Below are positions 2,823 to 57,825 of a DNA stretch of 64,000 bases, piece by piece. Within the stretch, counting starts at the first letter, position 1; the number at the start of each line of letters is the position of its first letter. Under the pieces are notes generated by a model. That model did not search any database, had not been told where the DNA came from, and saw only the letters and a program-made list of their open reading frames with translations. The stretch is from Lytechinus pictus (taxonomy: Eukaryota), in contig NC_087245.1 in assembly GCF_037042905.1 (NCBI RefSeq), forward strand, positions 27,654,001 through 27,718,000, in the 5' to 3' direction. The position numbers were made by a program, and so were the translations under genes.

Positions 2823-3084
2823 ATGATGGTGACTGACACAACTAAACTGTTGCTTCTGGCAGCCATATTTTCTGTTATCCTTGCGTGCCTTCCATCGCTC
2901 GGCCAGTGCTTCGTGATCTACGAAGATGAAGTCGATGACGAGAACGAAAACGATGGCGAATGGAAAAGAGGGTACTCCCGGAATAACGTGGTCGCCGATC
3001 CTGTTCTAAGGTCGCCGGTTACCTACAGCTCGATGAGTAAATATTTACAAGGACTGGCATCGAGACGATTTGTAAGAGACCCAC
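2823..3084 (+). CDS. Neuropeptide precursor, first coding exon (exon probably starts at 2799): signal peptide, acidic spacer, KR and first peptide region
   Basis: Acceptor tctttt caatcctttcactcacAG at 2797-2798, ATG at 2823. Hydrophobic signal-like LLLLAAIFSVILACLPSLGQC, acidic EDEVDDENENDGEW, dibasic KR, then GYSRNNVVADPVLRSPVTYSSMSKYLQGLASRRFVRDP. Donor CAC|GTAAGT at 3084/3085 (phase 1). Confidence 0.9.
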
Positions 3085-6000
3085 GTAAGTTTTTGCTTTT
3101 TTTCTGTCCTTAAAATGTTTGACATCTAAAAAAAAGAGGGTGAAATATTCTTTTCCTAACAACCAAAAACTAATGTCATAGGAATTATGTGAGGTGGGCT
3201 CTCACCCATGCCCCCTCCCTCCCCGTACTATGCTAGTAAACATTATACGTATTTCCTTTAACATCATTACCATGATTACTAGTTGTTAATTCTAGCCAAA
3301 GTTTAAACAATATAGAAAGACATTTGAAGGTGTTAAAGTGATCCGAGAGTATCGAGCAACATTTATTTGTGATTTTTGTCCTACCATTACAAATTTTTTT
3401 CAAACTTTATTAAAACTCTTTAATATTCTGTTTAATCAACGCCATTATACTGAAGGATAAACTTATTTTGTAATTTTGGGTGACTTAAAAGCTTTACAAT
3501 AAAACATCCAAAGCTCTGAAGTTTGTAAGATTTTTATTTCCTATCTGGTTGAATGGTTTAAGATATACTTCCCTGAGGAGGGGTCGGTCGATGTACGAAC
3601 CTAAGAACCTTAAATCAAGAAGTACACGATGAACTCGACCACCTTTCCTAAAAATTCCGAGAAGACGATGACGCTCTCCTATCGACCATCGGACAAAATG
3701 TAAATATTATTGCATGTGATCGGTAATGTGAATATAATGTCAATAATTGGGTGCCGCACTCGAACTTATTTCTCAAATTTAGACAGCTGCAGAAAATCTC
3801 ATTCATCATTCGGTATGCATGGGCATACACTAATGTTCTGAATGCGCCAAAGGTCCACCGATGTTTTGAGTTTGTTTTGTTTTAATAGTTTGGTGGGAGG
3901 GGGTGGGTGTGTGTGAGGGAGTGTATGTGGGTGGGTGCACGCGTTAGCTTGGATAGAGTTCATGGCCGTACGCAGAATTTTTTTTTTGGGGGGGCAGGAC
4001 ACGTAGAATTTTAGAAGAAACTCAAAAGCGATGGAAGAAAGTGACTGAGCTTGTAATGGGGACCTTTGCATTGTCTAAGGTGATATGAAAGGGTTTGTAC
4101 AAACCTTTGAAGATGTTTGTGAACGTTTTCAGTAAAAATATAAGTTTTCAAAATTTCCACCCCCCCCTCCGCTGCGTATGACAATGTTTGGGTATATTTT
4201 CAGTTTAATTTCTCTCTATGGGTTGTCCTCATGGTTCTTAAATACGATCATGACTTTCTTCTTCATCTCGAAGCTTGGTAACTGAATATGTTTGATCATG
4301 TCACATTTAAGATAGTATGATGTTTTCCTTGAATAATTGGTCACACCTGGGCCATATAAAATTAGGCCTTCTGGGTACTTCCCAGTGCCCCCATAGCCGC
4401 AGATTGGGACAATCCTAACACTCATTTGATTTTAAATATGAGTCAATCATTGATAAAAGAAAGATAGACGGAGATAGAGTTCGAAATTAATGTGGGTGTG
4501 TCAAATGTGGGTGAGTGGGTGTGTTCATCGATGTATTAAAGAGAAAGGATGTGTATATTATTCTGAGTGGGTGATCATGTGTCTTCGAGTTAAAATCTTA
4601 CAAGGGTATGGTATAAAACAACGATTAATAGTACGAACATCTAGCACATTGTTGTCAATAGACATAAAGCGCTTTACTAAGACAGAAAATTATAGTAACA
4701 ATACAACAAACCATGAACATAAAACATGAGAATGAAAACCTTGCCTGAGTCTGCGAATATAAAGTGGGGTGGTTAAGGAATAATTTCTGAATACATTAGG
4801 AGAAGAAGTGTCTGGATAAAAGAGACATATAAAGGGAAGGGTTTGTGCGAGAGAGTGGATGGGTAGAGAGGGTAGACAGAGAAGCGGAAGAAGCGAACGC
4901 GAGAGGGTGCGCTTATGTGGGTGGGTGCATGGTTGGGCGTAATTGCGTGTGTTTGTGGTTTGTACTTGTAAAGAGGAGAGGGGTATACTAGATGTTTATT
5001 GTCTTGTGTAATTGTATTGTATGTGTAATTACTGAAGTGTCGGTATTCTGGGTGGCTGGGTTTTGATGGGTGTGTGGGTGGGTGGGTTGAGTATAGGAAT
5101 TTCTGCAAGTAGAGCTTAGTGAAAAACGGGAAAAGGTGAAGGGGAGGGGAAAAATCCCCTTCTCTTCACCCATTCCTAAATTTCTAAAAACAATTCACGA
5201 TTTTTCTAGCATTTAACATGATTGAGAGAGTTGTTAGAACCAATGTACTACTACATCCATACTCATTCTTATGGCTGTGAGTCAAATGACCCATGTTTAA
5301 TCTATGATTATGTGTCAGTCAACGGTTGAATTCACAACCTCATGTTCGTGTACTCTCCCAACTGAGCCAACTTGACCTGTCCTGCAAGAGCAAAGAAAAT
5401 ATATATGTCGAGAAAGGGTGTAAGGAAAAAAGGGTAAAATAAAATTTCCGGGGGGGGGGGTAGGCGGCATTGGCATATTTGCGTAGGATTAGGCTTCAGG
5501 GGCGACGAAACACAGAGTGTTGTTTGTATCGTATTTTCGACGTAAAGTTTTTATTTGTGTCCTGCTAAATCTTTAATATTAAAGCCAAGCTAATAATAAA
5601 ATTAATATTTAAAATATGATTCATGGCTTACTTGCTTCGCTCACACACAAATTGTCCACAATAACACTCCGTACCCAAATTTATTCCCCTCTAATATTAG
5701 GATCGTTATTACGCTAGAAAGACATGCAAAAGGAGGGGAAGAGGGGTGGTCGGTAGATTAGGGCTGCTTTTGACCTTAGACATCAGATACTTCAGATTTC
5801 AATATCCGGAGGAGTTGAAGTGGGCGACAAACATTTTGTCACGTGTTATTACTTATTAGTCTCCGAATGACGTGACAAGTCTTCATCTTGAATAGTTCTC
5901 TAGCTTCAGTTTCCGTTCTCGTGGCACCGAGAGCCACAAACATTATTACAGAATATGGGTCTTTTATGATAAACATCATCGCGTCAAAATGAAAACTGAA

Positions 6001-6528
6001 TGTGTAAAGAAGTTACGGCTAATTAAACTTAAAGAACCATTTATGTCGTTACTATTGGTTATCAGCCATGATCCGCTTTTTAATTTTTTGGCTTAATGGC
6101 TGACAGCTTTTCGACTGCCGAATACATTGTTGGCATAAAGAAGTCACAACTTTATAATGAGACATGAAAAGTGTTTAAGAAATTGCCGTGTCGTTTGCTG
6201 AAATACTAGACCAGTGTTCCATGCATACTTAACAGAGACCTTATTGTCAAATGCCCTTCATGATCAAGAACGACCAAGAAATCTTTGTGTCGAAATTGGT
6301 GAATCAAAACAGCAATTTCATCCTTGACTCTGGAAAAACGACATATTTGCAGTTTATTGGTCTGCTTCGGAACACCAATGTTCGACAAAGACCTCTGAGC
6401 CCCCCCCCCTATTTTTTTGTTTTTTTCTATTTGACAGGCATTTTCACTACATTTATTGTGTACTCGAATCCGTCCCGGTTGCTTATTAGTGCATCCGGGC
6501 CACATCTCACAAAGATCTGAGATTGATC

Positions 6529-6660
6529 TGGGGCCCTTTTCATAAAACTTGTTATAATAACAAATTTGCAATAACAGTTAAAAGCTACTGAAATCCTTCA
6601 ATCTGATTGGTTGATAGTAAATTTGTTATAAAAATTCAGCAATTTTCTATTATATCAATA
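6529..6660. mobile_element. Truncated MITE with GGGGCCC terminus (related copy at ~38649-38795)
   Basis: ggggcccttttcataaaacttgtt start resembles ggggcccgtttcataaagaattgtt at 38649. Both have an internal CCAAT-like core. Confidence 0.45.
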
Positions 6661-9600
6661 ATAAATTCAAATGCATACGTTACTATCTGAATATATATAT
6701 TCTGTGATATCAACATGCACAGTCTCTGTGCCCCGTTCGGAGCCCCGTCTTTTTATCTCATGGGTTTTAACATTTAACCTTTGGAACTCTTGAGGAAGTC
6801 GCAGAGAGACTTGATTTTGTCAGAAATCGCCACCTCCAAACTTGTATGATGGGAACTGGGTGCCGATATGAGAGTATCTAGCCTAATTAAAGTTTAACAC
6901 TTCCCGATCCTTGTATCATTCTCTTCTTGGAAGATCTCTTCAGAGACATTAATATTGAATTGCGTTGTCCCTTTGGTTTTGTGTCACCAGATCGCCTCCA
7001 ATCATTGTCAAACGCAAGGTCTTCCCTGTGGCAAGTGTAACAGGTTATCCTCTTGAGCCACGGACGCGATTTAGTTACAAAGGACGATGCTTCAGTTTCA
7101 AGCACAATCGTCAAACCAGTAATGATAAAACAAATTTCATTAGTTCCGCCCCTCCCCCTCTTCGCGATATTCTTATTTTTGAAGATTCCTAATTGTCAGA
7201 CTGTATTATATTGATATTAATAACAACATACAACAACAACAACCACAACAATGATGATAATGATTATAATGATGATGATGATGTTAATGATAATAATCAT
7301 ACATAGGGTCTATTTAGCGCCCATCTTTATTAGATACTCAATTTAAACTTTCCTATTAATTCAGGTTTTCAATGGACGACAAAGAATTTGACATAATCAG
7401 ACCAGTCGTTGTTCTCTAAATGCAAAACAGAGACATGTTAGAAGAGACATTTCCACACTCCACAGAGATTATCACCTACACTTAACATGCAATGACCCGT
7501 ACTTATCAATTTGACAAGGGCTTTCTCTGAAGTCTGCCTGTCAGCAATCAACCCCATGGACACGGACCAATGAATAAGGGACATTGCCTGACAGTGAATA
7601 ATTCCCGACAGAAGGCATCCCCTCCATTGGTCAGACCGTCAGAAAAATCCCCAAGAATCGCCAAGCCGTCAAGTCGACAGGTCATTTGCAGCCGTTCTTT
7701 CCCCGCTTATAGCGTAGAACGCGTTTCATCGTTTTCAGATAAAATACCTGTCGTAATAGCATGGGCGGCGCCATAGGAAGGAGGGGGTGGGGTAGGGGCT
7801 ACCACCCTTTTGATTTTTTTTCTAAGCAATGGAAAAGTGTGAAAATGAAGAGGGAGAATGGGTAAAAAATAAGGAATGTATAAAATAAAATATTTATAAA
7901 ATATTTAAAATCCCTATAATTTGATTCATAAACAAAAACATAAAGTCATTTTTCGTGGGTAGCCTTGCCTCCCTCATGAAATAAAAATATCCCGGCACTG
8001 CATCCGGTTGTTATATACCTGTAAAAACAAATTGACCAATAATATTAAAGTTTTGATAGAGCAGTTAATTTCTAAATGAACCACAAATTGGGAAAGTACC
8101 ATATGAAAGATTAACGAACTAATGGATCAATCAGTCAGTGCTAAATACAAAAACAAATGAATAATTAGGTAAATTAATAAAAAAGAATCTGAATCATGAT
8201 AAATAATTGATATTGATTGCAGGATTATGTCGACCTGAAAAGATCAATGGTAGATGTGAAACTCTTTGTTTGGCCACAGTCTAAAGGAAGTTTTTCAGTA
8301 CGCTGGCGTCTTGATTTTTCGTATCTTATCGTGCGTGTTTAATGGTTTGTAAAATGATTAGCATCTTGTCTGTAACCATCATCTTTCCACCCCATTCACC
8401 CTCCCCCTCTGACGTTTTATTTCTCTTTCTCTCTCTCTCTCTGTCTTGTTTCTCTCAATATTCATCTCCCATTTCGCTTCTTCATCCCTCTTTTATTCTC
8501 TCTCCCGGTGCATCCTTCAACTCAACAACCATTCATGTGTAATGCAATATTGCTAATTCTTGAAGATTTATAGCTATTTCAGTCCTTTAATCAAGTTAAT
8601 TCAACAATTTTGTAAGAAAGCCGTCTGTACACTGGCGGAAAATCCTTCAATTTTCCAAAATTTCTTTTAAGCTTTCAGTCCTGTCTGTCGTATTAATGAG
8701 AGTTCATGAACATCATGAAAGTCTAGGTTTTACTACATCGAGAGCTGGGTAGGCCTATACGGTATATGATATGACATAGTTTGGTCTATGGGGGAAATCG
8801 GAGACATTTTAAGGCTCAAATCTATTTGAATTTAGAGCTCTCAAACGAAATTATATTCCAAAATAACCAGAAAAAAACACATGCTTCTTTATCGGTTTTG
8901 TGTATCTTTACCCAACCTTGTATATTCAGTTCAAATGCTATGTGAATACTAAAATCTAAGGATTTAACATAAATCCAGTGATCAGCCGAATATTATCTAG
9001 ATTTAGATTTAAACCTTGTGAATATGAATTTAAAGCTGAATGATTTGAAATGAAGTCTTTTGAGATATAATCACTGGAACGTCAAAAATAAATCCAGTAT
9101 TCGCCTGATAACTAATCACAGCCAATACGAATTTATTCTAAATGACTGGAATTTAGATATATATCTGTACTTATTCTAGGGGAAAGCATGATTACATTGT
9201 TAGATTAAAAACTGTAATAGTACACGGTAACTTAAGGACGTTATAAAAGAAATTGATTGCAACTCAACTGTCAATAACTTTCAGTAGGTTTCAACAGTCA
9301 TGACGCTAAAAATAAAATGGGAAATTCATGTAGTGCGGTTAATGAGCCCACTCTGTATTTTAGAGTTTTGTACTATTACTAAATATTTCACCTAAAAAGA
9401 AGGCTCATATTTTTTAGTGCAGCGAGTCAGTTAAGAAGGGCAATCAATTCTGAATATGTATTAAATCAAAATCAGCCTTTGACGAAAATTTTGTAATTAA
9501 GACATTCTAAGGGCCACGGGAAGATGGAAAATTACCTTTTACTTAGCTAAAGCAATGTCATGAATCATCTGAAGGTTCAAGTAGCATCCTATATTTGAAG

Positions 9601-10688
9601 CATTGAATTGCACGCACAATTTTTGGTCGTGTGAGGGCGCACATCTTCACTACTGAACCACTGCAACTGTTTTCACTCCTTTTTTTTTATTCAAATGTTT
9701 TTACGCGCTACATTACTTGTTTTTTTACGTAAATATACCTCAAATGTTTATTCAGCCCACATTCCGACAATTCGTCCCCTCTTTTTTGGTTATCACAATT
9801 CACTCATTATGTTGCTTTACATTTTTCATTTCATGTCTTATGATTTTTTTTAGTCCACTCTGTCTGCCATTGTTTTTATTAAAAAAAAATGATTTTCATA
9901 GTTTCAAGTGGACTTCTCTTTTTCCAGCGAAACATTGATTCACGATACTTTTTAGATTGCAATGAGTATTTTCAAATTTCAGTTTCAAATCTATGATAGA
10001 AACTTTATATTGCATTTTTTGTATACTTTATTTGTAATATCCATGATACTTGTATGTATTTTGTTGTAATAAATTGATATAAAAAGTAAGAATTGACAAT
10101 TGAAACTTAATTGAACGCCCATTTTGTCGAAACACATTATATGGGTCTGAATGTGTAGACTACAGAAGACGAATATGAAGTGTGCAATGTAGTTTCTCCA
10201 AAATAAGAGTTTGTGCTAGTCCTCTATCAAGACCCACTTTTGCGGAAAATACATTTGAGTAACTTTATGCTTCCATCCAGGCAGACTGCATGTCAGCTGA
10301 ATGTCGCGACCGTTGCCTAATGTGGGAAGTCAATGACGATTGAAACATGATCTGATTTGATTTCTCTTCATTTATCTCATTCTCTCTTCTTTTTGGGTTA
10401 ATATATTTCTGTATTTCTTAAACTCTGCTTTGTTGTATTAATAATACATTTCATGAATGCACATGTTTTTGACAATATTCATGTATTAGAGTATTTCAAC
10501 CATTGATATTTATCCCGCCCTTCTATGACGAAATCCATAATAGACTGTGTCAATGAATGTAATGTTAATTCATTTCATTTCTCTTTTCTTTCTTTTTTCT
10601 CTCTCTTCTCCCCCTTTTCTCTCTCTCCATTTTCTCTCTCACTATCACTCTCTTTCTCTTTCCTCCCCCTCTTTCTTTCAACATTCAG

Positions 10689-10837
10689 AAATGGACAAGA
10701 GACAAGTAAATGTTGGTCTTCGTCTGGTGTCATTGGAAAGGTTACGTAATCATCTCAACACCGTGGCTGATTCCAGGAGCAGACAGAAACTTCGCCATAA
10801 TCAGAATCTCATGGACCGGGTCGGCAGGAGGAGATAA
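10689..10837 (+). CDS. Neuropeptide precursor, last coding exon, encoding a CRH/DH44-type peptide
   Basis: Long polypyrimidine tract then cattcAG (10687-10688). Phase 1 matches the 3084 donor (C+AA=Gln). Reads MDKR-QVNVGLRLVSLERLRNHLNTVADSRSRQKLRHNQNLMDRV-GRRR-stop. Spliced ORF is 411 nt = 136 aa. Confidence 0.88.
10703..10825 (+). other. Predicted mature 40-aa pGlu...Val-amide CRH-type peptide plus amide-donor Gly
   Basis: Bounded by KR and G-RRR, N-terminal Gln. C-terminally anchored ungapped alignment to human CRH(1-41) shares L15, R16, L19, Q29, N34, L37, M38. Confidence 0.8.
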
Positions 10838-13111
10838 TGATCTAATGCAGCAGTTATAAACAGGTATTATAGATATCAATCTGAAAATATATATTGAAAA
10901 ATATTTAAAAAGCACTGTTCGGTTTACGGCCAATGGCCTTCATCTGCTCATCCACCAAATGTAATTACGAAATGGCTTATTGTTGTTCAGTGTTCGCACT
11001 TTGTACCATCTGCATTATAATGCAGCTGACCATATTCGTTGTCGACAAAAAACCCCACTAATAACTATGTCAATCAATAAGGCAGTTAATGATTTTTTAC
11101 ACTCTACGTACAAACATTAAATTTCAGGTATCTTTTCTTTCTCCATTCTTTATAGGGAGCATCAGAATTGAGTGCACAGCAGAGTCAATGTGGAAGACAG
11201 CATCTTTTCACAACAGGATGTTTAGATACTAAACAGCTTGCGATTTTCAGTTTAGGTGATACAATTGTTAGAATGTGTAGAACCAATCCTCTATCTTCCT
11301 TATTATGCTGTGTTACAATAGTCACAGTATTCGGAGGTCATAATCCAATATGACCATTGATGGCGTAATAGGAAAATGTTAGAAAAAGGGTATAGTCTTA
11401 ACGCTTTGGTTAATTTTGTATTGCTTATTTCATTACAATTTTCGTAGCCGTCTTTTAGTTTGAATTATGCTTTCATGCGCATCGTAAATAGATTGAAAAT
11501 GAAAAGATTACGATGTCACGCAAATCCAGGCCTAAAATATGGCAAGCAGTATGAATTGTATTTTATCGGCATGAGAGAAGGGGTACTGGCAGATTTGTAA
11601 ACTTACCCCCTCCCCACCCCTCCCCCACCACAAATTAAAAAAAAACTTATTTTGGTTAAATTCCATCAGAAAACCATATGACCATGCAATTTCACAGCTC
11701 TTCACTTTCGGCAAAGAAAACTTACCTCTTCTTTATCTTTTATTACGTATACTTTATTCATATCGGCATTTTTTTCTACCATGCTGCCCTCGACACACGC
11801 ATACAAATGTCCCGGTTGTGAAACGTTAACCAAAATAGCATCCGAAGTAGAAATGAAAAAGAAATATATCAATCAAAGTAAAACCTGTATTCTTGTATAT
11901 TCTTTATTTTTTTCAGTGCTTATGTTATAAAAGCGTGTCGTGTAGTGGTGGTTATCTCTTTATATATTGTTGTAGTTTGAAGCTAAATGTGCGATTAGGC
12001 AACTTGTCGATTAGGGTATTAATTAACAATTTCTTTACATGCTTTTTAACTTATTAATATTGACAGTCCACGCAGGCAATACGTTTAGACAAGGAGTTAG
12101 GATGTCGGATTAATGTAGAGTAGAATTTAGACGAGAACCCCATTACGTTTCATTTTCTTCAATCTGTATGGCTGTTGAACATTCCAGATCAAAGATAATT
12201 TTGTTACTTGTGTTTTATCATGATAATATTATGTAATTTTTTCTATTATTTTTTCAGCATTATATTGGAGATAAATTGAAAATGTGCATTAATTCTTTTT
12301 AAAGGTGTGCTTAAGAGCCAAATATATTGCTTAGGTTAGGACGAAATAGACGTGGTATAATGTTTGTAAATATTAATTAAGAGAGAGAATAAAGAATATA
12401 TGTCTTAAAATTATGCTTGCAAGTTGCATATAAATGGTGCTTTTATTGGGAATTGTGAATGATCCAGACGTCAACGTTTATTCATTCATTATTCACGACT
12501 TGAGAATGGTAGGAATCTTTAGACAATTATCTATGTGATTGAAATGGATTCCAAATACGATTGGAAATTATAATGAAATAAACTCTTCAAAAGTGATTTA
12601 AAATATATCGATCTATATATAAAAAAAAGGTGCATACATGCACCCTTATAATGATTCACAGTGATTTACATGATATTATAATGTACTGTTGCAAACCGAA
12701 TTGGTTTATATGACTTACCATTATCTATTGTATCCAGGCAATCAAAACATTAAAAGTCATATTGTATTTTAGGATCGAAAATGTATTCATCTATCTTGTT
12801 TCATTATTTGAAGCATTAACACTATTTTTTTTACATATAATTTATGTCGGCTGTTGTAATATAATTAATGTGAATAAGTGATATAATAAATGATATATAA
12901 TGACAGAAAAAAACTACATTTTGTATTACGTCATTTGCTTTTAAACACGATGGTCACAAGTTGATGAAAATTGGATCATAATGGAAATAGATACAGTGTT
13001 GGAAATATAGACAACCATAAAATTTAAAAATGATATAAATTTTGCTTTATCGAGAATACTGTACGCCAAAACAGACAGGAACGCAAGAAGAGAGCCTGTG
13101 AGAGAAATGCT

Positions 13112-18937: not shown

Positions 18938-21900
18938 GCGCCCCCTGGTTCGAACATCAATTCAGCACCCCGCCCTAGTTCGAACACCATTCCGGTGCCT
19001 CCCTCGTTCGAGCATTGATAAAGCCCCCTCCCCTAGTTCGAACATCAATCCAGCGCCCCCCCTAGTTTGAACATCAATTCGGTGCCTCCTAGTTCAAACA
19101 TCAATCCGGCGCCCCTAGTTCGAACATCGATTCCGCGCCCTCTAGTTCGAACATCAATTTGGCGCCCTCCCCCCACTTCAAGCATAAATTTTGGGGCCCC
19201 TACTTCAAACATCAATCCGGCGCCCCCTAGTTCGAGCATCGATTCGCCCCCCCCCCTAGCAAAAATTTTACGCACACTAAATCGAACATCAATTTGGCAC
19301 CCCCTAGTTTGAACGTTAATTCGGCACCCCCCCCCCCCCGTTGCGAACATAAATTCGGCACCCCCTAATTCGAACATCGATTCGGCGCCCCCTCTTAGTT
19401 CGAACATCAATTCTGCGCCCCCTAATCGAATATCAATTCGGTGCCCCCTAGTTAGAACATCGATTCGGCGCCCTTCTAGCTCGAACATCAATTTCGCGCC
19501 CCCCTAGTTTGAACCTCAATTCGGCGCCCCTTTGTTCGAACATTAGTTTGGCGCCCCCTAGTTCTAGTTTAATTCAATTCAATTCTTTTTCAAACATCAA
19601 TTCGGCGCCCCATAGTTCGAACATAAATTTGGCGCCCCTACTTCGAACATCAATTCAGCACCCCTCCCTAGTTCGAACACCAGTTCGGTGCCTCCCTACT
19701 TCGTACATTGATTAAGCCCCCTCCCCCCCCCCCCCCCCTAGTTCGAACATCAATTCAGCGTCCCCCTAGCTTGAACACCAATTAGGCGCTCCCTGGTTCA
19801 AACATAAATTCGGTGCCCCCTATATAGTTCAAAAAACAATCCGGCACCCCCTGCTTCAACATCAATCCGGCACCCCCTGCTTCAACATCAATCCGGCACC
19901 CCCTACTTCAAACATCAATCGGCGCCCCCTAGGCCGAACATCAATTCGGCGCCCCCTTCTAGTTCGAACATCAATTGGTGCCCCCTGTAGTTCGAACATA
20001 ATTTAGGCGCCCCCCACTTCAAACATCAATTTCGAGCCCCTGGTTCGAACATCGATTCGGCGCCCCTTTGTTTGAACATCAATTTGGCGCCCCCCTAATT
20101 CGAACATCGACTCAGAGCCCCCGCCTCGCCCCCTAGTTCGAACATTAATTCTGTACCCCCTAGCTCGAACATAAATTCGATGCCCCCAAGTTCAAACATC
20201 AATCCGGCGCCCCCTAGTTCAAACATCAAACGGCACCCCATAGTTCGAACATAAATTCGGCGCCCCCTTGGCCGAACATCAATTCGGACCCCCCTCCCGA
20301 CCTAGTTGGAACATCAATTCGGTGCCCCCCTTCTAGTTCGAACATCAATTTGGCTCCATCCCCAATTCGGTGTCCCCCGGTTCCCCCCCCCCCCCCGTTG
20401 CGAACATAATTTTGGCGCCCCCCCCATCTTCAAACATCAATTTTGAGCCCCTGGTTCGAACATCGATTCGGCTCCCCCTCGTTTGAATATCAATTTGGCG
20501 CCCCCAAATTCAAACATCGATTCGGAGCCCCCGCCTCGCCCCCGAGTTCGAACATCAATTCTGTACCCCCCTAGTTCGAACATGAATTCGGTGCCCCCAA
20601 GTTCAAACATCAATCCGGCACCCAATAGTTCGAACATAAATTCGGCGCCCCCTAGACCGGACATCAATTCAGACCCCCCCCCCGACCTAGTGGGAACATC
20701 GATTTGGTGTCCCCCTCTAGTTCGAACATCAATTTGGCGCCCCCTCCACTTTAAAAATCAATTTTGCACCCACCTAGATCGAACATCGATTCGGCGCAAC
20801 CTCCGAGTTTGAACATCAATTTTGCGCCCCCTAATTCGAACATCATTTCGGCCCCCCTCGTTCTTACATCTATTCAGCGCCCTTCTAGTTTGAACATTAA
20901 TTTAACTGGCGCCCATCTAGTTCGAACCTCATTTTGGCGCCCCTTTGTTTGAACATCACTTTGACGCCCCTCTAGTTCGAACATCAATTTCGTGCCCCCC
21001 TAGTTCGAACCTCAATATGGCACCCCCTTTGTTCAAACATCAATTCGGAGCCGCGACCTAGTTGGAACATCAATTCGGTGCCCCCCTTCTAGTTCGAACA
21101 TCAATTGACCCCCCTATTTCGATCATCGATCCGGCGCCCCCTAGTTCAAACATCGATTCGGAGCCCCCACCTAGTTGGAACATCAATTCGGTGCCCCCCC
21201 TCTAGTTCAAACATCGATTTGGCTCCCCCCTAGTTCGAACCTCAATTCGGCGCCCCCTTTGTTCGAACATTAGTTTGGACCCCCTAGTTCTAGTTTAATT
21301 CAATTCAATTATATTTCAAACATCAATTCAGCACCCCTCCCTAGTTCGAACACCAGTCCGGTGCCTCACTACTTCGTACATTAATTAAGCCCCCCCCCTA
21401 GTTCGAACACCAATTTGGCGTCCGCTAGTTCGAACATCAATTCAGCGTCCCCCTAGCTTGAACACCAATTAGGCGCTCACTAGTTCAAACATCAATCCGG
21501 CGCCCCCTACTTCAAACATCAATCTGGCGCCCCCTACTTCAAACATCAATCAGCGCCCCATAGTTCGAACATAAATTCGGCGCCCCCTAGGCCGAACATC
21601 AATTCGGCGCCCCCTTCTAGTTCGAACATCAATTGGTGCCCCCTGTAGTTCGAACATAATTTAGGCGCCCCCCCCCCCCCCACTTCAAACATCAATTTTG
21701 AGCCACTGGTTCGAAGATCGATTCGGCTCCCCCTTGTTTGAACATCAATTTGGCGCCTCCTAATTCGAACATCCATTCGGAGCCCCCGCCTCGCCCCCTA
21801 GTTCGAACATCAATTCTGAATCCCCCTAGTTCGAACATGAATTCGGTGCCCCCTAATTCAAACATCGATCCCCCCGACCTAGTAGGAACATCAATTCGGT

Positions 21901-24900
21901 GCTCCCCATCTAGTTCGAACATCAATTTGGCGCCCCCCCCAACTTCAAACATCAATTTTGCACCCACCTAGTTCGAACTTAAATTCGGTGTACCCGGTTC
22001 CCCCCCCCCCCCGTTGTAAACATAATTTTGGCGCCCCCCCCCCCCACTTCAAACATCAATTTTGAGCCCCTGGTTCGAACATCGATTCGGCTCCCCCTTG
22101 TTTGAACATCAATTTGGCGCCCCCTAATACAAACATCGATTCGGAGCCCCCACCTCGCCCCCGAGTTCGAACATGAATTCTGTACCCCCCCTAGTTCGAA
22201 CATGAATTCGGTGCCCCCAAGTCCAAACATCATTCCCGCGCCCCCTAGTTCAAACATCAATCGGCACCCAATAGTTCGAACATAAATTCGGCGCCCCCTA
22301 GGCCGAACATCAATTCGGCGCCCCCTTCTAGTTCGAACATCAATTGGTGCCCCCTGTAGTTCGAACATAATTTTGGCGCCATCCCACTTCAAACATCAAT
22401 TTCGAGCCCCTGGTTTGAACTTCGATTCGGCGCCCCTTTGTTTGAACATCAATTTGGTGCCCCCCTAATTCGAACATCGACTCAGAGCCCCCGCCTCGCC
22501 CCCTAGTTCGAACATCAATTCTGTACCCCCTAGCTCGAACATGAATTCGGTGCCCCCAAGTTCAAACATCAATCCCCCCGACCTAGTAGGAACATCAATT
22601 CGGTGCTCCCCCCCTAGTTCGAACTTCAATTTGGCGTCCGCTAGTTCGAACATCAATTCAGCGTCCCCCTAGCTTGAACACCAATTAGGCGCTCCCTAGT
22701 TCAAACATCAATTAGGTGCCCCCTAGTTCAAACATCAATTCGGTGCTCACTAGTTCAAACATCAATCCGGCGCCCCCTACTTCAAACATCAATCAGCGCC
22801 CCTTTGTTTGAACATCACTTTGACGCCCCTCTAGTTCGAACATCAATTTCGTGCCCCCCTAGTTCGAACCTCAATATGGCGCCCCCTTTGTTCAAACATC
22901 AATTCGGAGCCGCGACCTAGTTGGAACATCAATTCGGTGCCCCCCTTCTAGTTCGAACAGCAATTGACCCCCCTATTTCGATCATCGATCCGGCGCCCCC
23001 TAGTTCAAACATCGATTCGGAGCCCCCACCTAGTTGGAACATCAATTCGGTGCCCCCCCTCTAGTTCAAACATCGATTTGGCTCCCCCCTAGTTCGAACA
23101 TCAATTCAGCACCCCTCCCTAGTTCGAACACCAGTCCGGTGCCTCACTACTTCGTACATTAATTAAGCCCCCCCCCCCTAGTTCGAACACCAATTTGGCG
23201 TCCGCTAGTTCGAACATCAATTCAGCGTCCCCCTAGCTTGAACACCAATTAGGCGCTCACTAGTTCAAACATCAATCCGGCGCCCCCTACTTCAAACATC
23301 AATCTGGCGCCCCCTACTTCAAACATCAATCAGCGCCCCATAGTTCGAACATAAATTCGGCGCCCCCTAGGCCGAACATCAATTCGGCGCCCCCTTCTAG
23401 TTCGAACATCAATTGGTGCCCCCTGTAGTTCGAACATAATTTAGGCGCCCCCCCCCCCCCCACTTCAAACATCAATTTTGAGCCCCTGGTTCGAACATCG
23501 ATTCGGCTCCCCCTTGTTTGAACATCAATTTGGCGCCCCCTAATACAAACATCGATTCGGAGCCCCCACCTCGCCCCCGAGTTCGAACATGAATTCTGTA
23601 CCCCCCCCCCCCTAGTTCGAACATGAATTCGGTGCCCCCAAGTCCAAACATCATTCCCGCGCCCCCTAGTTCAAACATCAATCGGCACCCAATAGTTCGA
23701 ACATAAATTCGGCGCCCCCTAGGCCGAACATCAATTCGGCGCCCCCTTCTAGTTCGAACATCAATTGGTGCCCCCTGTAGTTCGAACATAATTTTGGCGC
23801 CATCCCACTTCAAACATCAATTTCGAGCCCCTGGTTTGAACTTCGATTCGGCGCCCCTTTGTTTTAACATCAATTTGGTGCCCCCCTAATTCGAACATCG
23901 ACTCAGAGCCCCCGCCTCGCCCCCTAGTTCGAACATCAATTCTGTACCCCCTAGCTCGAACATGAATTCGGTGCCCCCAAGTTCAAACATCAATCCCCCG
24001 ACCTAGTAGGAACATCAATTCGGTGCTCCCCCCCCCCCCTAGTTCGAACTTCAATTTGGCGTCCGCTAGTTCGAACATCAATTCAGCGTCCCCCTAGCTT
24101 GAACACCAATTAGGCGCTCCCTAGTTCAAACATCAATTAGGTGCCCCCTAGTTCAAACATCAATTCGGTGCTCACTAGTTCAAACATCAATCCGGCGCCC
24201 CCTACTTCAAACATCAATCTGGCGCCCCCTACTTCAAACATCAATCAGCGCCCAATAGTTCGAACATAAATTCGGCGCCCCCTAGGCCGAACATCAATTC
24301 GGCGCCCCCTTCTAGTTCGAACATCAATTGGTGCCCCCTGTAGTTCGAACATAATTTAGGCGCCCCCCCCCCCACTTCAAACATCAATTTTGAGCCACTG
24401 GTTCGAACATCGATTCGGCTCCCCCTTGTTTGAACATCAATTTGGCGCCCCCTAATACAAACATCGATTCGGAGCCCCCGCCTCGCCCCCGAGTTCGAAC
24501 ATGAATTCGGTGCCCTCAAGTTCAAACATCATTCCGGCGCCCCCTAGTTCAAACATCAATCGGCACCCAATAGTTTGAACATAAATTCGGCGCCCCCTAG
24601 GCCGACCATCAATTCGGACCCCCCTTCTAGTTCGAACATCAATTGGTGCCCCCTGTAGTTCGAACATAATTTTGGCGCCATCCCACTTCAAACATCAATT
24701 TCGAGCCCCTGGTTCAAACATCGATTCGGCACCCCTTTGTTTGAACATCAGTTTGGTGCCCCCCTAATCCGAACATCGATTCAGAGCCCCCGCCTCGCCC
24801 CCTAGTTCGAACATCAATTCTGTACCCCCTAGCTCAAACATGAATTCGGTGCCCCCAAGTTCAAACATCGATCCGGAGCCCCCTAGTTCAAACATCAATC

Positions 24901-27900
24901 GGCACCCCATAGTTCGAACATCAATTCGGCGCCCCCTAGGCCGAACATCGATTCGAACACCCCCCCCCCAGACCTAGTTGGAACATCACTTCGGTGCCCC
25001 CCTTCTAGTTCGAACATTTATTTGGCGTCAACCCCCCCCCCCACTTCAAACATCAATTTTGCACCCACCTAGTTCGAACTTCAATTCGGTGTCCCCCGGT
25101 TCACCCCCTCCCCCGTTGCGAACATAATTTTGGCGCCCCCCCCCTCTTCAAACATCAATTTTGAGCCCCTGGTTCGAACATCGATTCGGCTCCCCCTTGT
25201 TTGAACATTAATTTGGCGCCCCCTAATTCAAACATCGATTCGTAGCCCCCGCCTTGCCCCCGAGTTCGAACATCAATTCTGTACCCCTAGCCCGAACATC
25301 AACTCGGACCCCCACCCCCCCCCCCCGACCTAGTGGGAACATCAATCTGGTGCCCCCCCCCCCTAGTTCGAACATCGATTCGGCGCAACCTCTGAGTTTG
25401 AACATCAATTTTGCACCCACCTAGTTCGAACTTCAATTCGGTGTCCCCCGGTTCACCCCCCCCCCCGTTGCGAACATAATTTTGGCGCCCTCCCCCCCCC
25501 ACTCTTCGAACATCAATTTTGAGCCCCTGGTTCGAACATCGATTCGGCTCCCCCTTGTTTGAACATGAATTCGGTGCCCCCAAGTTCAAACATCAATCCG
25601 GCACCCAATAGTTCGAACATAAATTTGGCGCCCCCTAGGCCGAACATCAACTCGGACCCCCCCCCCGACCTAGTGGGAACATCAATTTGGTGCCCCCCCC
25701 CCTAGTTCGAACATCGATTCGGCGCAACCTCTGAGTTTGAACATCAATTTTGCACCCTCTAATTCGAATATCATTTCGGCCCCCCTCGTTCTTACATCTA
25801 TTCAGCGCCCTTCTAGTTTGAACATTAATTTAACTGGCGCCCTTTAGTTCAAACATCAATTCGGAGCCCCCTAGTTCAAACATCAATTCGGAGCCGCGAC
25901 CTAGTTGGAACATCAATTCGGCGCCCCCCTTCTAGTTCGAACATCAATTGGCCTCCCTATTTCGAACATCGATCCGGCGCCCCCTAGTTCAAACATCAAT
26001 TCGGAGCCCCCACCTAGTTGGAACATCAATTCGGTGCCCCCCCCCCCCATCTAGTTCGAACATCAATTTGGATCCCCCCTAGTTCGAACCTCAATTTGGG
26101 ACCCCCTTTGTTCGAACATTCGTTTGGACCCCCTAGTTCTAGTTAAATTAAATTCAATTCTATTTCAAACATCAATTCAGCACCCCTCCCTAGTTCGAAC
26201 ACCAGTCCGGTGCCTTCCTGCTTCGTATATTGATTAAGCCCCCCCCCCCCTAGTTCGAACATCAATTTGGCGTCTGCTAGTTCGAACATCAATTCAGCGT
26301 CCCCCTAGCTTGAACACCAATTAGGCGCTCCCTAGTTCAAACATAAATTCAGTGCCCCCTAGTTCAAACATCAATTCGGTGCTCCCTACTTCAAACATCA
26401 ATCTGGTGACCCCTACTTCAAACATCAATCGGCGCCCCATAGTTCGAACATAAATTCAGCGCCCCCTAGGCCGAACATCAATTCGGCGTCCCCTTCTAGT
26501 TCGAACATCAATTGGTGCCCCCTGTAGTTCAAACATAATTTTGGCGCCCCCCCCCCCCCCACTTCAAACATCAATTTTGAGCCCCTGATTCGAACATCGA
26601 TTCGGCTCCCCCTTGTTTGAACATTTATTTGGCGCCCCCTAATTCGAACATCGATTCGGAGCCCCCGCCTCGCCCCCTAGTTCGAACATTAATTCTGTAC
26701 CCCCCTAGTTCGAACATGAATTCGGTGGCCCCTAGTTTAAACATCGATCCCACCCGACCTAGTTGGAACATCAATTCGGTGCCCCCCTTCTAGTTCGAAC
26801 ATCAATTTGGCGCCCCCCCTTCAAATATCAATTTTGCGCCCCCCCTTCAAACATCAATTTTGCGCCCACCTAGTTCGAACTTCAATTCGGTGTCCCCCGG
26901 TTCTCCCCCCCCCCCGTTGCGAACATAATTTTGGCGCCCCCCCCCCGCCCCACTTCAAACACCAATTTTGATCCCTGGTTCGAACATCGATTAGGCTCCC
27001 CCTTGTTTGAACATGAATTCGGTGCCCCCAAGTTCAAACATCAATCCGGCGCCCCCTAGTTCAAACATCAATCGGCACCCAATAGTTCGAACATAAATTC
27101 GGCGCCCCCTAGGCCGAACATCAATTCGGACCCCCCCCCCGACCTATTGGGAACATCAATTTGGTGCCCCCCTCTAGTTCGAACATCAATTTCGTGCCCC
27201 CCTAGTTCGAACCTCAATATGGCGCCCCCTTTGTTCGAACATCAATTTGGCGCCCCCTAGTTCTAGTTTAATTCAATTCAATTCTATTTCAAACATCAAT
27301 TCGGCGCCCCATAGTTCGAACACTAATTTGGCGCCCCTAGTTCGAACATCAATTTAGCACCCCTCCCTAGTTCGAACACCAGTTCGGTGCCTCCCTACTT
27401 CGTACATTGATTAAGCCCCCCCCCCCCTAGTTCGAACATCAATATGCCGTCTGCTTGTTCGAACATCAATTCAGCGTCCCCCTAGCTTGAACACCAATTA
27501 GGCGCTCCCTAGTTCAAACATAAATTCGGTGCCCCCTAGTTCAAACATCAATTCGGTGCTCCCTAGTTCAAACATCAATCCGGCGCCCCCTACTTCAAAC
27601 ATCAATCTGGTGCCCCCTACTTCAAACATCAATCGGCGCCCCATAGTTCGAACATAAATTCGGCGGCCCCTAGGCCGAACATCAATTCGGCGTCCCCTTC
27701 TACTTCGAACATCAATTGGTGCCCCCCCCTTCAAATATCCCACCCGTTGCGAACATAATTTTGGCGCCCCCCCCCCCCACTTCAAACACCAATTTACATC
27801 CCTGGTTCGAACATCGATTAGGCTCCCCCTTGTTTGAACATGAATTCGGTGCCCCCAAGTTCAAACATCAATCCGGCGCCCCCTAGTTCAAACATCAATC

Positions 27901-30900
27901 GGCACCCAATAGTTCGAACATAAATTCGGCGCCCCCTAGGCCGAACATCAATTCGGACCCCCCCCCCCGACCTATTGGGAACATCAATTTGGTGCCCCCC
28001 TCTAGTTCGAACATCAATTTCGTGCCCCCCTAGTTCGAACCTCAATATGGCGCCCCCTTTGTTCGAACATCAATTTGGCGCCACCTAGTTCTAGTTTAAT
28101 TCAATTCAATTCTATTTCAAACATCAATTCGGCGCCCCATAGTTCGAACACTAATTTGGCGCCCCTAGTTCGAACATCAATTTAGCACCCCTCCCTAGTT
28201 CGAACACCAGTTCGGTGCCTCCCTACTTCGTACATTGATTAAGCCCCCCCCCCCCCTAGTTCGAACATCATTTTGGCGTCCGCTAGTTCGAACATCAATT
28301 CAGCGTCCCCCTAGCTTGAACACCAATTAGGCGCTCCCTAGTTCAAACATCAATCCAGCGCCCCCTACTTCAGACATCAATCCGGTGCCCCCTACTTCAA
28401 ACATCAATCTGGCGCCCCATAGTTCGAACATAAATTCGGCGCCCCCTAGGCCGAACATCAATTCGGCGCCCCCTTCTAGTTCGAACATCAATTGGTGCCC
28501 CCTGTAGTTCGAACATAATTTTGGCGCCCCCCCCCCCCCGCACGTCAAGCATCAATTTTGAGCCCCTGGTTCGAACATCGATTCAGCTCCCCCTTGTTTG
28601 AACATCAATTTGGCACCCCCTAATTCGAACATCGATTCGGAGCCCCCGCCTCGCCCCCTAGTTCGAACATCAATTTGGCGCCCTCTCCACTTTAAACATC
28701 AATTTTGCACCCACCTAGATCGAACATCATTTCGGCCCCCCTCGTTCGAACATCTATTCGGCGCCCTTCTAGTTTCAACATTAATTTAACTGGCGCCCAT
28801 CTAGTTCGAACCTCAATTTGGCGCCCCTTTGTTTGAACATCCTTTGACGCCCCCTAGTTCAATCATCGATCCGGCGCCCCCTAGTTCAAACATCAATTTG
28901 GAGCCCTCTAGTTCAAACATCAATTCGGAGCCGCGACCTAGTTGGAACATCAATTTGGCGCCCCCCCCCTTCTAGTTCGAACATCAATTGGCCACTCTAT
29001 TTCAAATATCAATCCGGCGCCCCCTAGTTCAAACATCAATTCGGAGACCCCACCTAGTTGGAACATCAATTCGGTGCCCCACCCCCTCTAATTCGAACAT
29101 CAATTTGGCTACCCCCTAGTTCGAACCTCAATTCGGCGCCCCCTTTGTTCGAACATTAGTTTGGACCCCCTAGTTCTAGTTAAATTCAATTCAATTCTAT
29201 TTCAAACATCAATTCAGCACCCCTCCCTAGTTCGAACACCAGTCCGGTGCCTCCCTGCTTCGTACATTGATTAAGCCCCCCCCCCCCCTAGTTCGAACAT
29301 CAATTTGGCGTCTGCTAGTTCGAACATCAATTCAGCGTCCCCCTAGCTTGAACACCAATTAGGCGCTCCCTAGTTCAAACATAAATTCAGTGCCCCCTAG
29401 TTCAAACATCAATTCGGTGCTCCCTAGTTCAAACATCAATCCGGCGCCCCCTACTTCAAACATCAATCTGGTGACCCCTACTTCAAACATCAATCGGCGC
29501 CCCATAGTTCGAACATAAATTCAGCGCCCCCTAGGCCGAACATCAATTCGGCGTCCCCTTCTAGTTCGAACATCAATTGGTGCCCCCTGTAGTTCGAACA
29601 TAATTTTGGCGCCCCCCCCCCCACTTCAAACATCAATTTTGAGCCCCTGATTCGAACATCGATTCGGCTCCCCCTTGTTTGAACATTTATTTGGCGCCCC
29701 CTAATTCGAACATCGATTCGGAGCCCCCGCCTCGCCCCCTAGTTCGAACATTAATTCTGTACCCCCCTAGTTCGAACATGAATTCGGTGCCCCCTAGTTT
29801 AAACATCGATCCCACCCGACCTAGTTGGAACATCAATTCGGTGCCCCCCTTCTAGTTCGAACATCAATTTGGCGCCCCCCCTTCAAATATCAATTTTGCG
29901 CCCCCCCCCCCTTCAAACATCAATTTTGCGCCCACCTAGTTCGAACTTCAATTCGGTGTCCCCCGGTTCTCCCCCCCCCCCCCGTTGCGAACATAATTTT
30001 GGCGCCCCCCCCCCACCCCACTTCAAACACCAATTTTGATCCCTGGTTCGAACATCGATTAGGCTCCCCCTTGTTTGAACATGAATTCGGTGCCCCCAAG
30101 TTCAAACATCAATCCGGCGCCCCCTAGTTCAAACATCAATCGGCACCCAATAGTTCGAACATAAATTCTGCGCCCCCTAGGCCGAACATCAATTCGGACC
30201 CCCCCCCCCGACCTATTGGGAACATCAATTTGGTGCCCCCCTCTAGTTCGAACATCAATTTCGTGCCCCCCTAGTTCGAACCTCAATATGGCGCCCCCTT
30301 TGTTCGAACATCAATTTGGCGCCCCCTAGTTCTAGTTTAATTCAATTCAATTCTATTTCAAACATCAATTCGGCGCCCCATAGTTCGAACACTAATTTGG
30401 CGCCCCTAGTTCGAACATCAATTTAGCACCCCTCCCTAGTTCGAACACCAGTTCGGTGCCTCCCTACTTCGTACATTGATTAAGCCCCCCCCCCCCTAGT
30501 TCGAACATCAATATGCCGTCTGCTTGTTCGAACATCAATTCAGCGTCCCCCTAGCTTGAACACCAATTAGGCGCTCCCTAGTTCAAACATAAATTCGGTG
30601 CCCCCTAGTTCAAACACCAATTCGGTGCTCCCTAGTTCAAACATCAATCCGGCGCCCCCTACTTCAAACATCAATCTGGTGCCCCCTACTTCAAACATCA
30701 ATCGGCGCCCCATAGTTCGAACATAAATTCGGCGGCCCCTAGGCCGAACATCAATTCGGCGTCCCCTTCTACTTCGAACATCAATTGGTGCCCCCTGTAG
30801 TTCGAACATAATTTTGGCGCCCCCCCACTTCAAACATAAATTTTGAGCCCCTGATTCGAACATCGATTCGGCTCCCCCTTGTTTGAACATTTATTTGGCG

Positions 30901-32125
30901 CCCCCTAATTCGAACATCGATTCGGAGCCCCCGCCTCGCCCCCTAGTTCGAACATGAATTCGGTGCCCCCTAGTTTAAACATCGATCCCACCCGACCTAG
31001 TTGGAACATCAATTCGGTGCCCCCCTTCTAGTTCGAACATCAATTTGGCGCCCTCCCCCCCACTTCAAATATCAATTTTGCGCCCCCCCCCCACTTCAAA
31101 CATCAATTTTGCGCCCACCTAGTTCGAACTTCAATTCGGTGTCCCCCGGTTCTCCCCCCCCCCGTTGCGAACATAATTTTGGCGCCCCCCCCCCACTTCA
31201 AACACCAATTTACATCCCTGGTTCGAACATCGATTAGGCTCCCCCTTGTTTGAACATGAATTCGGTGCCCCCAAGTTCAAACATCAATCCGGCGCCCCCT
31301 AGTTCAAACATCAATCGGCACCCAATAGTTCGAACATAAATTCGGCGCCCCCTAGGCCGAACATCAATTCGGACCCCCCCCCGACCTATTGGGAACATCA
31401 ATTTGGTGCCCCCCTCTAGTTCGAACATCAATTTCGTGCCCCCCTAGTTCGAACCTCAATATGGCGCCCCCTTTGTTCGAACATCAATTTGGCGCCCCCT
31501 AGTTCTAGTTTAATTCAATTCAATTCTATTTCAAACATCAATTCGGCGCCCCATAGTTCGAACACTAATTTGGCGCCCCTAGTTCGAACATCAATTTAGC
31601 ACCCCTCCCTAGTTCGAACACCAGTTCGGTGCCTCCCTACTTCGTACATTGATTAAGCCTCCCCCCCCCCTAGTTCGAACATCAATTTGGCGTCCAATAG
31701 TTCGAACATCAATACAGCGTCCCCCTAGCTTGAACACCAATTAGGCGCTCCCTAGTTCAAATATCAATCCGGCGCCCCCTACTTCAAACATCAATCCGGC
31801 GCCCCCTAGTTCAAACATCAATCGGCACCCCATAGTTCGAACATAAATTCGGCGCCCCCTAGGCCGAACATCAATTCGGCGCCCCTTCTAGTTCGAACAT
31901 CAATTGGTGCCCCCTGTAGTTCGAACATAATTTTGGTGCCCCCCCCCCTGCACTTCAAGCATCAATTTTGAGCCCATGGATCGAACATCGATTCAGCTCC
32001 CCCTTGTTTGAACATCAATTTGGCGCCCCCTAATTCAAACATCAATTCGGAGCCGCCTGACCTCGCCCCCGAGTTCGAACATCAATTCTGTACCCCCCTA
32101 GTTCGAACATCAATTGGTGCCCCCT
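18938..32125. repeat. ~13.2-kb tandem array of a ~30-bp minisatellite (consensus ~CTAGTTCGAACATCAATTCGGCGCCCCC) with kb-scale higher-order duplications
   Basis: Continuous variant monomers, roughly 430 by length/30. Diagnostic variants recur, e.g. ttctagtttaattcaattcaatt and cgtacattgattaagcccc. Identical spurious ORFs at 27818-28045 and 30059-30286. Confidence 0.97.
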
Positions 32126-34565: not shown

Positions 34566-35959
34566 TACATATATTAGTATATTATAAATTTACATATATA
34601 GGCAGTTATTTTAAACGAGTTCTAAATGTTTTTTCTCATATTGCTAAGCATAATTAATTGGACATTGTATTTCTTAGAAGTGTAGGTGTGTCATAGATAA
34701 TGCATTCACGGCAAAGCTTTATTTTCGCGCATGTATTCAGCAAACTAATGAATGTCATCTGTCCACTTGTATATTCGTTTGATTTTTTTTTTATTATATC
34801 AAATTATATTGATTACATTTGTTCCCCGAAAATTGAATAAAACATGATTGACTACTGCTTTTATCAAAAGCATCGTTATTGCTGAAATTCGATATGTAAT
34901 AATGAGTCTTTTCGAAATAAGAAATAATTATTATTTCATGTAATGAAATATTTATAAATTCATTAATTAAATAAGAAGAAGAAAAAGTAGGGACACGAAC
35001 GGAAGACCCATTCAGATGTGTCATTCTATATTTTATGTTTGTAAGAGTATTGTAAGCTTCTGCCCGAGAGATTAATTCCTTTGACCATGGACCTAGTAGG
35101 TCCATGCTGTGACTGAAGAGCCTTTCGAGCCCCTGTCCCTGAAATGTTTATTCCTTGTTTAAAGTAATACATAAAAAGACAAATGAAAAGCATTGAAATT
35201 TCATCAAAATTGTACTAGGAATAAAAAAAAATTATTAGGTTTTACCATTATTTTCGTTGAAATTATGAATTATTAATAATGACGACATAAATCTATTTTT
35301 CACAAAATATTGCTTAACTTAAAGTTTAATTACTTTGTTATTGATATCAGATTTTGATGAAATTTTAAGCTTTTTCGTAATTAATTTTACTTAATTTACT
35401 TATTTATTAATTTCAGCCCGGTGTGTATCCCTTTTAAAGCTGTAGGCTAACAGATCGTATAGTCAAATTGTTTTTCAAGTATTTCAAAGAATGTCAGGGA
35501 GATGGTTTCCTGTGAATGATGAGCCTACTGGGCCAGTCCCTTAAACTGTAGGAGAACGTTCCGTTCTCCTACAGTTTAAGGGGCGTTCCGCCCAGTCAGA
35601 TTGTATTTTTTTTTAAGTATTTGTAATAATATTGTTAATAAATTATTTCTGTCTGGGAGATGGTGTCCTTCCTGTGAATGATCAGCCTACTGGGCCAGCC
35701 CCTTAAACTGTAGGAGAACGGAATGCCTAGTCAGATTGTATTTCCCCCCCCCCCCCCCGTTTTTTTTTTTTTTTAATAATTTTTTTGTAAGAATATTGTT
35801 AATTTCTGTCTGGGAGATGGTTTCCTGTGAATGATGAGCCTACTGGGCTAGCCCCTTAAAGTGTAGGAGAACGGAACGCCCAGTCAGATTATGTTTAAAT
35901 TATATGTATTTATATTTTTTTAAATTAATTTCTGTCTTCGAGATGATGTCTTATGAATA

Positions 35960-57172: not shown

Positions 57173-57825
57173 AGGTCAGGGAATGTTGCAGGAGTTCACC
57201 CCCCCCCTCCACTTAGATAAAAAAAAAATTGCTTGTAATTTTGTTTTTATGAAAAGACCTAATTGGGGGGGGGGGGGAGTGAAAACCTCTGTCAAATTTT
57301 CATTGAACTCGAACTCTACCTTTCAAAAATTCTGCGTACGCTACTGCAAAAGCTAGAGCTATTGGAGCTATACGTAGCGTAAAGAGAAGATTGTTTCATA
57401 GCGGCAAAGCTCTGCCTCAAGTACCTTGTATTGTGTATGCTTGCGCGCACATGGTATCTAAACTGATATTAAGCGTGCGGGTACACCGCAAGAACGATAC
57501 TGAGTCGTGACTAAACTTTTCTGAGGACTAATTCGGAGGAATCACGTACCAGTGACAATGCGGCCGTATTTGTCAGCGCTTTTGGAATTATTATAGGCAC
57601 GGTTGTAGTCACATCTTCAGGAGCGAACAGAGCTCTGCAAGCTGATTCAGTGGGTCCAGCGCCTGTAGACGTTGTGCGCGGTCGCCGCGGTTGATCGAAC
57701 GCTTTGACGGATCGCATTTTACTTCCGCTGGTAGCCAAAACAAAATTTATTTCCCTTTCCATCTTTGTCAGGAATTTACGGGAATTATATACATATTTTT
57801 GGAAGCTCACATCATCAGGTACTAA

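Follow-up and report, generated by a model that had tools for sequence, protein, structure and literature searches.

The window analysed here, a stretch of 64,000 nucleotides (nt) from the sea urchin Lytechinus pictus (RefSeq assembly GCF_037042905.1, contig NC_087245.1, positions 27,654,001 to 27,718,000 of the forward strand), carries a two-exon gene whose 136-residue product is probably a sea urchin neuropeptide precursor of the corticotropin-releasing hormone (CRH) type. As judged from its sequence, the precursor would yield a 40-residue amidated hormone from its C-terminal end, and a middle segment bounded by Lys-Arg (KR) pairs would be a precursor-related peptide. The gene is real and had been read correctly in the original prediction; it is a useful rather than a surprising find. 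Coordinates refer to the window, and all parts of the gene lie on the + strand.

Coding exon 1 (2823–3084) opens with an ATG at 2823 and ends at a phase-1 donor after position 3084 (GT at 3085–3086). Joined to 10689–10837, it gives a frame of 411 nt and 136 amino acids (aa) with zero internal stops, the stop codon being located at 10835–10837. The intron (3085–10688, 7604 nt) is a phase-1 intron of the GT-AG type, and its acceptor, the AG of which ends at 10688, is preceded by a tract of 110 nt consisting of 92% pyrimidines. Read from its second Met, the joined frame is identical to the RefSeq protein XP_054767486.1 (LOC129274723, L. pictus, “uncharacterized”), to which coding exon 1 is 100% identical. 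This identity, together with the canonical splice signals, bears out the proposed two-exon precursor with KR sites and a GRRR end. The exon-1 read-throughs P0007, P0008 and P0010 all diverge from the shared sequence at the donor position of the window, matching the position of the intron. An unnamed full-length Logan record of 135 aa is found on four contigs, each of at most 2290 nt; since the full-length form fits on such short contigs, it points to a spliced transcript, unless the intron is far shorter in that species. A lack of splicing between the two exons in vivo, with the precursor a mere product of gene prediction, could be argued from the L. pictus record being a predicted model, but is scarcely credible in view of the full-length orthologues known from two species of Diadema and from the short Logan contigs, the conserved position and phase of the intron, and the canonical splice signals. 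The bare pattern of KR, 36–46 aa, Gly, basic residue and stop is weak when taken alone: it occurred in 22 of 100 resampled windows, and the window itself contains a second match on the minus strand. It is conservation at the sequence level, with full-length orthologues at 87% and 59% identity, that settles the reality of the gene.

The gene had been described as hidden; it is already the RefSeq model LOC129274723 and merely unnamed, as RefSeq holds models of it in four urchin species, every record being “uncharacterized”. Searching with exon 1 matched three proteins among five candidates: LOC129274723 (L. pictus, 100%), LOC105437599 (Strongylocentrotus purpuratus, 87%) and a protein of Diadema setosum (63%). 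Cluster look-ups added D. antillarum, the 135-aa Logan record and two 88-aa exon-1 read-throughs. The expectation that annotation pipelines could miss the gene held in part, since all models are unnamed and that of S. purpuratus is without the hormone, but the models of L. pictus and Diadema (XP_072175929.1, XP_071493055.1) are whole. A profile search of 1.84 billion representatives resulted in five proteins, three of them urchin-type orthologues (with the exon-1 read-through P0010 newly added) and two spurious. The E-selectin-like proteins P0011 and P0012 were dropped as relatives because they represent low-complexity noise. When the C-terminal region or the alignment served as query in word searches, echinoid proteins only and zero non-echinoid relatives were retrieved, and scans for the locus were negative in viral stretches (0/117) and JGI metagenomes (0/159). 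The prokaryote genome matches (2/33), weak matches to Vibrio with an E value of 1e-3, were rejected. Named records from other sequenced urchins, e.g. Lytechinus variegatus or Paracentrotus, did not surface in the protein searches; these annotations may be without the gene, or the word search may have missed them.

The anatomy of the precursor is well conserved among echinoids. A predicted signal peptide (about residues 1–27/29; 2823–2909), whose cleavage site was placed by the (-3,-1) rule, reaches hydropathy values of up to 3.1 over residues 9–20, and is conserved at 25/27 and 17/27 positions. It is followed by an acidic N-terminal spacer (2910–2963; 9/19 identical to Diadema over residues 28–46 of P0003), the first KR cleavage site (2964–2969), and the middle segment of 41 aa (2970–10696, encoded by 2970–3084 and 10689–10696), for which a short helix is predicted. 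The second KR site (10697–10702), at which the S. purpuratus RefSeq model appears to exit the exon, precedes the predicted mature CRH-type peptide of 40 aa (10703–10822), whose N-terminal Gln is a predicted pyroglutamate, and the Gly-Arg-Arg-Arg amidation and cleavage signal (10823–10834). The original prediction expected this KR…GRRR peptide to be conserved in related species, and it is: in the four full-length orthologues aligned, which include two Diadema species and the unnamed Logan record, both KR sites, the Gln starting the last peptide (Q92) and the GRRR end are invariant, the C-terminal peptide is always 40 aa long, and the hydrophobic signal region is kept. Identity to Diadema amounts to 17/27 in the signal region, 9/19 in the spacer, 25/41 in the middle segment (18/23 in its core) and 19/40 in the C-terminal peptide, where it is distributed over the start (7/8), the middle (4/16) and the end (8/16). 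Conserved ends and a variable middle are what a two-site class-B ligand would be expected to have.

It is the published echinoderm precursors, compared by eye from supplement text, that make a CRH-type identity the most likely one. Ten were available (one from a starfish, nine from brittle stars), nine of them complete at the C-terminal end. The window peptide can be placed in an ungapped 40-aa register with starfish ArCRH, in which six of the 40 residues are identical (Q1, R13, R15, N33, Q34 and L36), conservative pairs occur at positions 11, 12, 14 and 37, and Gly-Arg follows in both. The end N-x-x-L-[FLM]-x3-G-basic-basic is present in eight of the nine complete published peptides, as far as the supplement text shows, and likewise in the window peptide. 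Shuffling the 40-mer produced this C-terminal motif, in combination with an h-x-x-[LI]-R core upstream of it, in 5 of 100000 trials, and the six frames of the window contain the combination once; core and motif at CRH spacing are present in P0003 and P0006. A propeptide motif, L-x-x-L-A-x-x-R before KR, turned up in 80 of 100000 shuffled versions of the window segment. It is our own reading of the published precursors rather than a published criterion, is common to ArCRHP and the brittle-star CRH2–4 precursors in the text available, and was found in five of the six proteins tested, the sixth, P0010, being an intron read-through without KR. An Atlas feature search with residues 86–135, restricted to named clusters, placed two PF00473 CRF clusters at the top of 30 (0.87 and 0.85); with the whole protein, only peptide-hormone-like eukaryotic clusters were among those displayed, DH44 being at rank 7. 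These matches are leads only, and the Atlas structure rows for the whole protein and for residues 86–135 were below the bar.

The closest likeness in layout is to the brittle-star CRH2–4 precursors (Zandawala et al. 2017, PMC5627052, figures S2–S4). As presented in these figures, they consist of a signal peptide, a short spacer, KR, a segment of 36–39 aa and a second KR before the hormone; this holds for all six precursors that display the region, a seventh, incomplete one having been left out of the count. Most of the segments contain an L/M-x-x-L/M-A-x-x-R stretch, corresponding to the helix motif of the urchin protein, and Asp-Pro near the end, before the second KR. The hormone usually starts with Gln and ends in N-x-x-L-h-x3-Gly-basic, as in the urchin. 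The urchin spacer is longer and acidic, and the urchin segment has an internal Arg-Arg (RR) pair where most of the brittle-star segments have R-x-R (RR in 0/6, R-x-R in 5/6). The last residues of the urchin hormone (Arg-Val-Gly) are closer to brittle-star CRH1, both precursors of which, in the same material, are without the upstream KR bounding the segment. Up to four CRH genes are described there for brittle stars; one was found in the urchin, where no genome-wide search was made.

The starfish precursor ArCRHP (Asterias rubens, KT601710; Semmens et al. 2016, PMC4772807), in the sections of that paper available to us, is similar in size to the urchin precursor (130 aa), releases one C-terminal, Gln-starting amidated peptide of 40 aa, and has the same propeptide helix motif; its signal peptide starts similarly, the closest counterpart being that of Diadema. 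ArCRH ends in Gly-Arg-Lys-Arg rather than GRRR, only the six hormone residues listed above are identical, and ArCRHP is without the upstream KR bounding the propeptide, having RR pairs elsewhere. One amidated peptide of about 40 aa at the precursor end is also what the urchin protein has in common with vertebrate CRH and urocortins, arthropod DH44 and molluscan ELH (PF00473), but it gives no match to the family profile, its links to CRF and DH44 clusters being leads at the feature level. Vertebrate and Ciona genes, according to the portion of PMC7406891 consulted, encode the whole precursor on one exon, in contrast to the urchin gene with its coding intron just before the second KR. With neither the profile match nor the one-exon structure, the urchin gene is not filed under Pfam CRF or among the vertebrate/tunicate CRH-urocortin genes.

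Several observations weigh against the CRH assignment. The CRF-family profile match that had been named as a test failed: neither the exons nor any of five whole proteins matched Pfam CRF (PF00473) at E values up to 10, and a profile search of the PDB gave 0 matches. Neither starfish nor brittle-star CRH was among the matches of the profile search of 1.84 billion representatives. Neither Diadema peptide conforms to the strict C-terminal motif, Leu being replaced by Phe in both. Since the motifs were drawn up with both sequence sets already known, the shuffle counts given above overstate significance. Only three of the ten best family matches of the Atlas search share the top family, which flags the assignment as “probably wrong”. 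The AlphaFold model predicts helices at residues 67–79 and 96–134, the latter with a predicted local distance difference test score (pLDDT) of about 57–62; its mean pLDDT of 48.8 is poor, and the model is of low confidence and too weak for a fold search, in which a lone helix would in any case match anything. The core of the middle segment is more conserved than the hormone, which is unexpected for a mere spacer. Finally, an earlier urchin “CRH” with two peptides turned out to be PDF, as stated in the available sections of PMC4772807. The Pfam rows for RdfA and HTH_45 were below the cut-off and were taken as chance matches. The proposed CRH-type precursor is supported by the ArCRH register, the brittle-star layout and motifs, the motif tests and the Atlas leads, but not by a CRF profile match.

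The missing CRF match in Pfam and the PDB would also suit a peptide that acts on a different class-B receptor family (PDF-, calcitonin/DH31- or PTH-type) and resembles CRH merely in being an amidated helix. The accessible parts of PMC4772807 and PMC6586643 moreover give a two-peptide layout as a feature of PDF precursors, and it is the urchin PDF precursor that was once mislabelled CRH. This explanation appears very improbable to us. Both brittle-star PDF peptides given in the excerpts of PMC5627052 carry an N-D-F motif, which is absent here, and the hormone and the propeptide both match the published echinoderm CRH precursors, as far as these could be compared. Calcitonins carry a cysteine pair, and the urchin peptide has no such pair. 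An echinoderm PDF-type precursor in particular was rejected, as the N-D-F motif near the start is absent and the two segments are unrelated.

Beyond the coding region, the sequence suggests non-coding exons on both sides of the gene. A pyrimidine-rich, acceptor-like CAG, the AG of which ends at 2798, precedes the ATG by 24 nt, which would make 2799–2822 the 5' untranslated portion of coding exon 1 and a non-coding exon upstream of 2799 likely; a simple pattern scan of 1–2790 revealed no strong donor. Exon 2 (10689–10863) is coding up to the stop and is followed by a donor 26 nt past it. From donor and acceptor sequence contexts, an intron of 292 nt (10864–11155) is predicted in the 3' untranslated region, and a downstream exon is predicted to start at 11156; its first part (11156–11198), untranslated here, corresponds by homology to the 14 aa that end the S. 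purpuratus RefSeq model.

This S. purpuratus model (LOC105437599, P0004; 105 aa) corresponds to the window protein up to and including the second KR, after which 14 unrelated residues follow. The best site for this tail in the window is the exon at 11156, in phase 2, ranking first of 2819 positions after YAG, first of 259 with a pyrimidine tract, and 27th of 127916 when positions were unrestricted. Five of the 14 residues are identical, and the window's version contains one stop; a scan at a threshold of six identities had missed the exon, which was found by the scored scan. Because the tail fits best to the exon opening at 11156, the splice in the S. purpuratus model most likely leads from the KR region directly into the next exon, so that the hormone is dropped. 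One synonymous change, turning the Arg codon of the second KR into AGG, would create a consensus GC donor in S. purpuratus. In the window, an alternative junction joining the GT at 10706 to 11156 would leave 65 open codons. The hormone-skipping form could be a genuine isoform or reflect an error of the model, and an unnamed full-length record shares its 90% cluster. The hormone-less model may explain why urchin CRH has remained unnamed from the reference species.

The second KR-flanked 41-aa peptide of the original prediction does exist as a segment, but an internal RR (R80-R81; 3063–3068), a possible extra cleavage site that is invariant in the four orthologues and also present in P0004 and P0010, had been overlooked. 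Given the segments found in the brittle-star precursors, the middle segment is, on sequence comparison, part of echinoderm CRH precursors in general and no urchin novelty. It has no amidation Gly and no similarity to the hormone, since in all four orthologues 11–63% of 2000 shuffles reached the score of the real alignment, and its brittle-star homologues reside in precursors that the authors treat as single-peptide in the parts of PMC5627052 and PMC4772807 consulted. For these reasons, the segment is most likely a conserved precursor-related by-product and not a new hormone. The proposal of two separate signals was accordingly not borne out, with the internal RR of the urchins as a further point against it; what keeps the idea alive is the high conservation of the segment together with the hormone-less S. 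purpuratus model.

In its fuller form, a two-signal precursor would release the middle 41-mer, or the 31-mer up to RR, as a bioactive peptide, and the hormone-skipping splice form would release it alone. We consider this unlikely, despite a core that is better conserved towards Diadema than the hormone, the KR-flanked homologue in every brittle-star CRH2–4 precursor displaying the region, and an S. purpuratus model that keeps signal, spacer, middle segment and closing KR before passing to the homologue of the exon at 11156. Besides the missing amide donor and the single-peptide view of the authors, the boundaries of the segment are lost in ArCRHP and in both brittle-star CRH1 precursors, as far as the published excerpts show; the S. 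purpuratus model is a prediction, possibly an error or a minor form, with an unnamed full-length record in its 90% cluster; and the window is without a GC or GT donor at the expected phase-2 position. It is more doubtful still that the segment is an unrecognised neuropeptide with its own receptor, from brittle stars to urchins, and that an urchin splice inside the second KR, by dropping the hormone, provides two separately controlled signals.

The middle segment might also have arisen as a tandem duplicate of the CRH peptide that has since decayed, comparable to the multi-copy ELH/CRH precursors of lophotrochozoans and possibly of Saccoglossus. The two peptides are close in length (41 and 40 aa), ELH precursors with several copies are described (PMC5627052, in the part consulted), and a figure legend of PMC4772807 has two Saccoglossus CRH entries under one GI number. 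The shuffling result stands against internal similarity, however, a Gly amide donor is absent, and the predicted helix comprises only 13 residues; we regard such an origin as highly improbable.

If the protein is a CRH-type precursor, it would enter the regulated secretory pathway of neurons via its signal peptide and would be cleaved by PC1/PC2 at the two KR sites and the GRRR end. Carboxypeptidase trimming, amidation by PAM and pyroglutamate formation would give the 40-residue amidated hormone, which is expected to fold as one long amphipathic helix. Its amidated end would dock on the extracellular domain of a class-B G protein-coupled receptor of the Sp-Crhr1 type, and its N-terminus would activate the receptor and raise cyclic AMP through Gs; the urchin CRH-binding protein could buffer the hormone. 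The middle segment would most likely be co-released as a precursor-related peptide, its conserved helix serving folding, sorting or processing, and the internal RR is probably a site of further cleavage in urchins. An annotation table for Paracentrotus lividus (PMC12588293) lists Sp-Crhr1 (SPU_018312) and a CRH-binding protein among the rows consulted; neither a CRH ligand nor LOC105437599 is among these rows. By analogy with the family, the physiological role could be in stress, fluid balance or gamete release (PMC4772807, sections available), and in Saccoglossus, according to the consulted part of PMC10508912, CRH marks cells at the proboscis base.

A literature search with the accession numbers and two peptide strings gave 0 results, and no paper naming this gene or an urchin CRH ligand was found in a search of papers outside subscription; an urchin sequence may be present in the CRH alignment of PMC5627052. 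The claim that the gene is unnamed is nevertheless soft, and specialists may already know the urchin CRH precursor, because Semmens et al. (PMC4772807) mention that a more CRH-like S. purpuratus precursor was identified, which is not described in the section consulted. According to the available part of PMC7406891, a single CRH-like gene is present in S. purpuratus; the work cited there had described an echinoderm “CRH” that was reassigned to PDF by Semmens et al. (PMC4772807). CRH-type precursors have been named in starfish and brittle stars, and for urchins a receptor and a binding protein are listed; the gene supplies a candidate for the ligand. L. pictus is being developed as a laboratory genetic model. 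A synthesisable candidate in this species makes receptor pairing and a role of CRH in stress, feeding or spawning testable in an echinoid, and the conserved middle segment offers a cheap second target for peptidomics.

Elsewhere in the window, upstream of the gene, 1273–1580 contains tandem units of 16, 26, 33 and 42 bp, partly in opposite orientation; as a guess, this cluster is possibly a non-autonomous mobile element. A GC-rich tandem array of about 13 kb (18938–32124), with a 27-bp unit, higher-order periods of 54, 107 and 113 bp and 62–72% matches, accounts for the rise in GC content at 20–32 kb, and a satellite with a 180-bp unit, 25.7 copies and 88% matches occupies 47059–51677. A stop-to-stop frame of 124 aa at 35957–36331 (+) presumably resembles the end of the reverse transcriptase of a long interspersed nuclear element, and another one of 138 aa at 57511–57927 (-), of ordinary composition, may represent an exon belonging to an adjacent gene.

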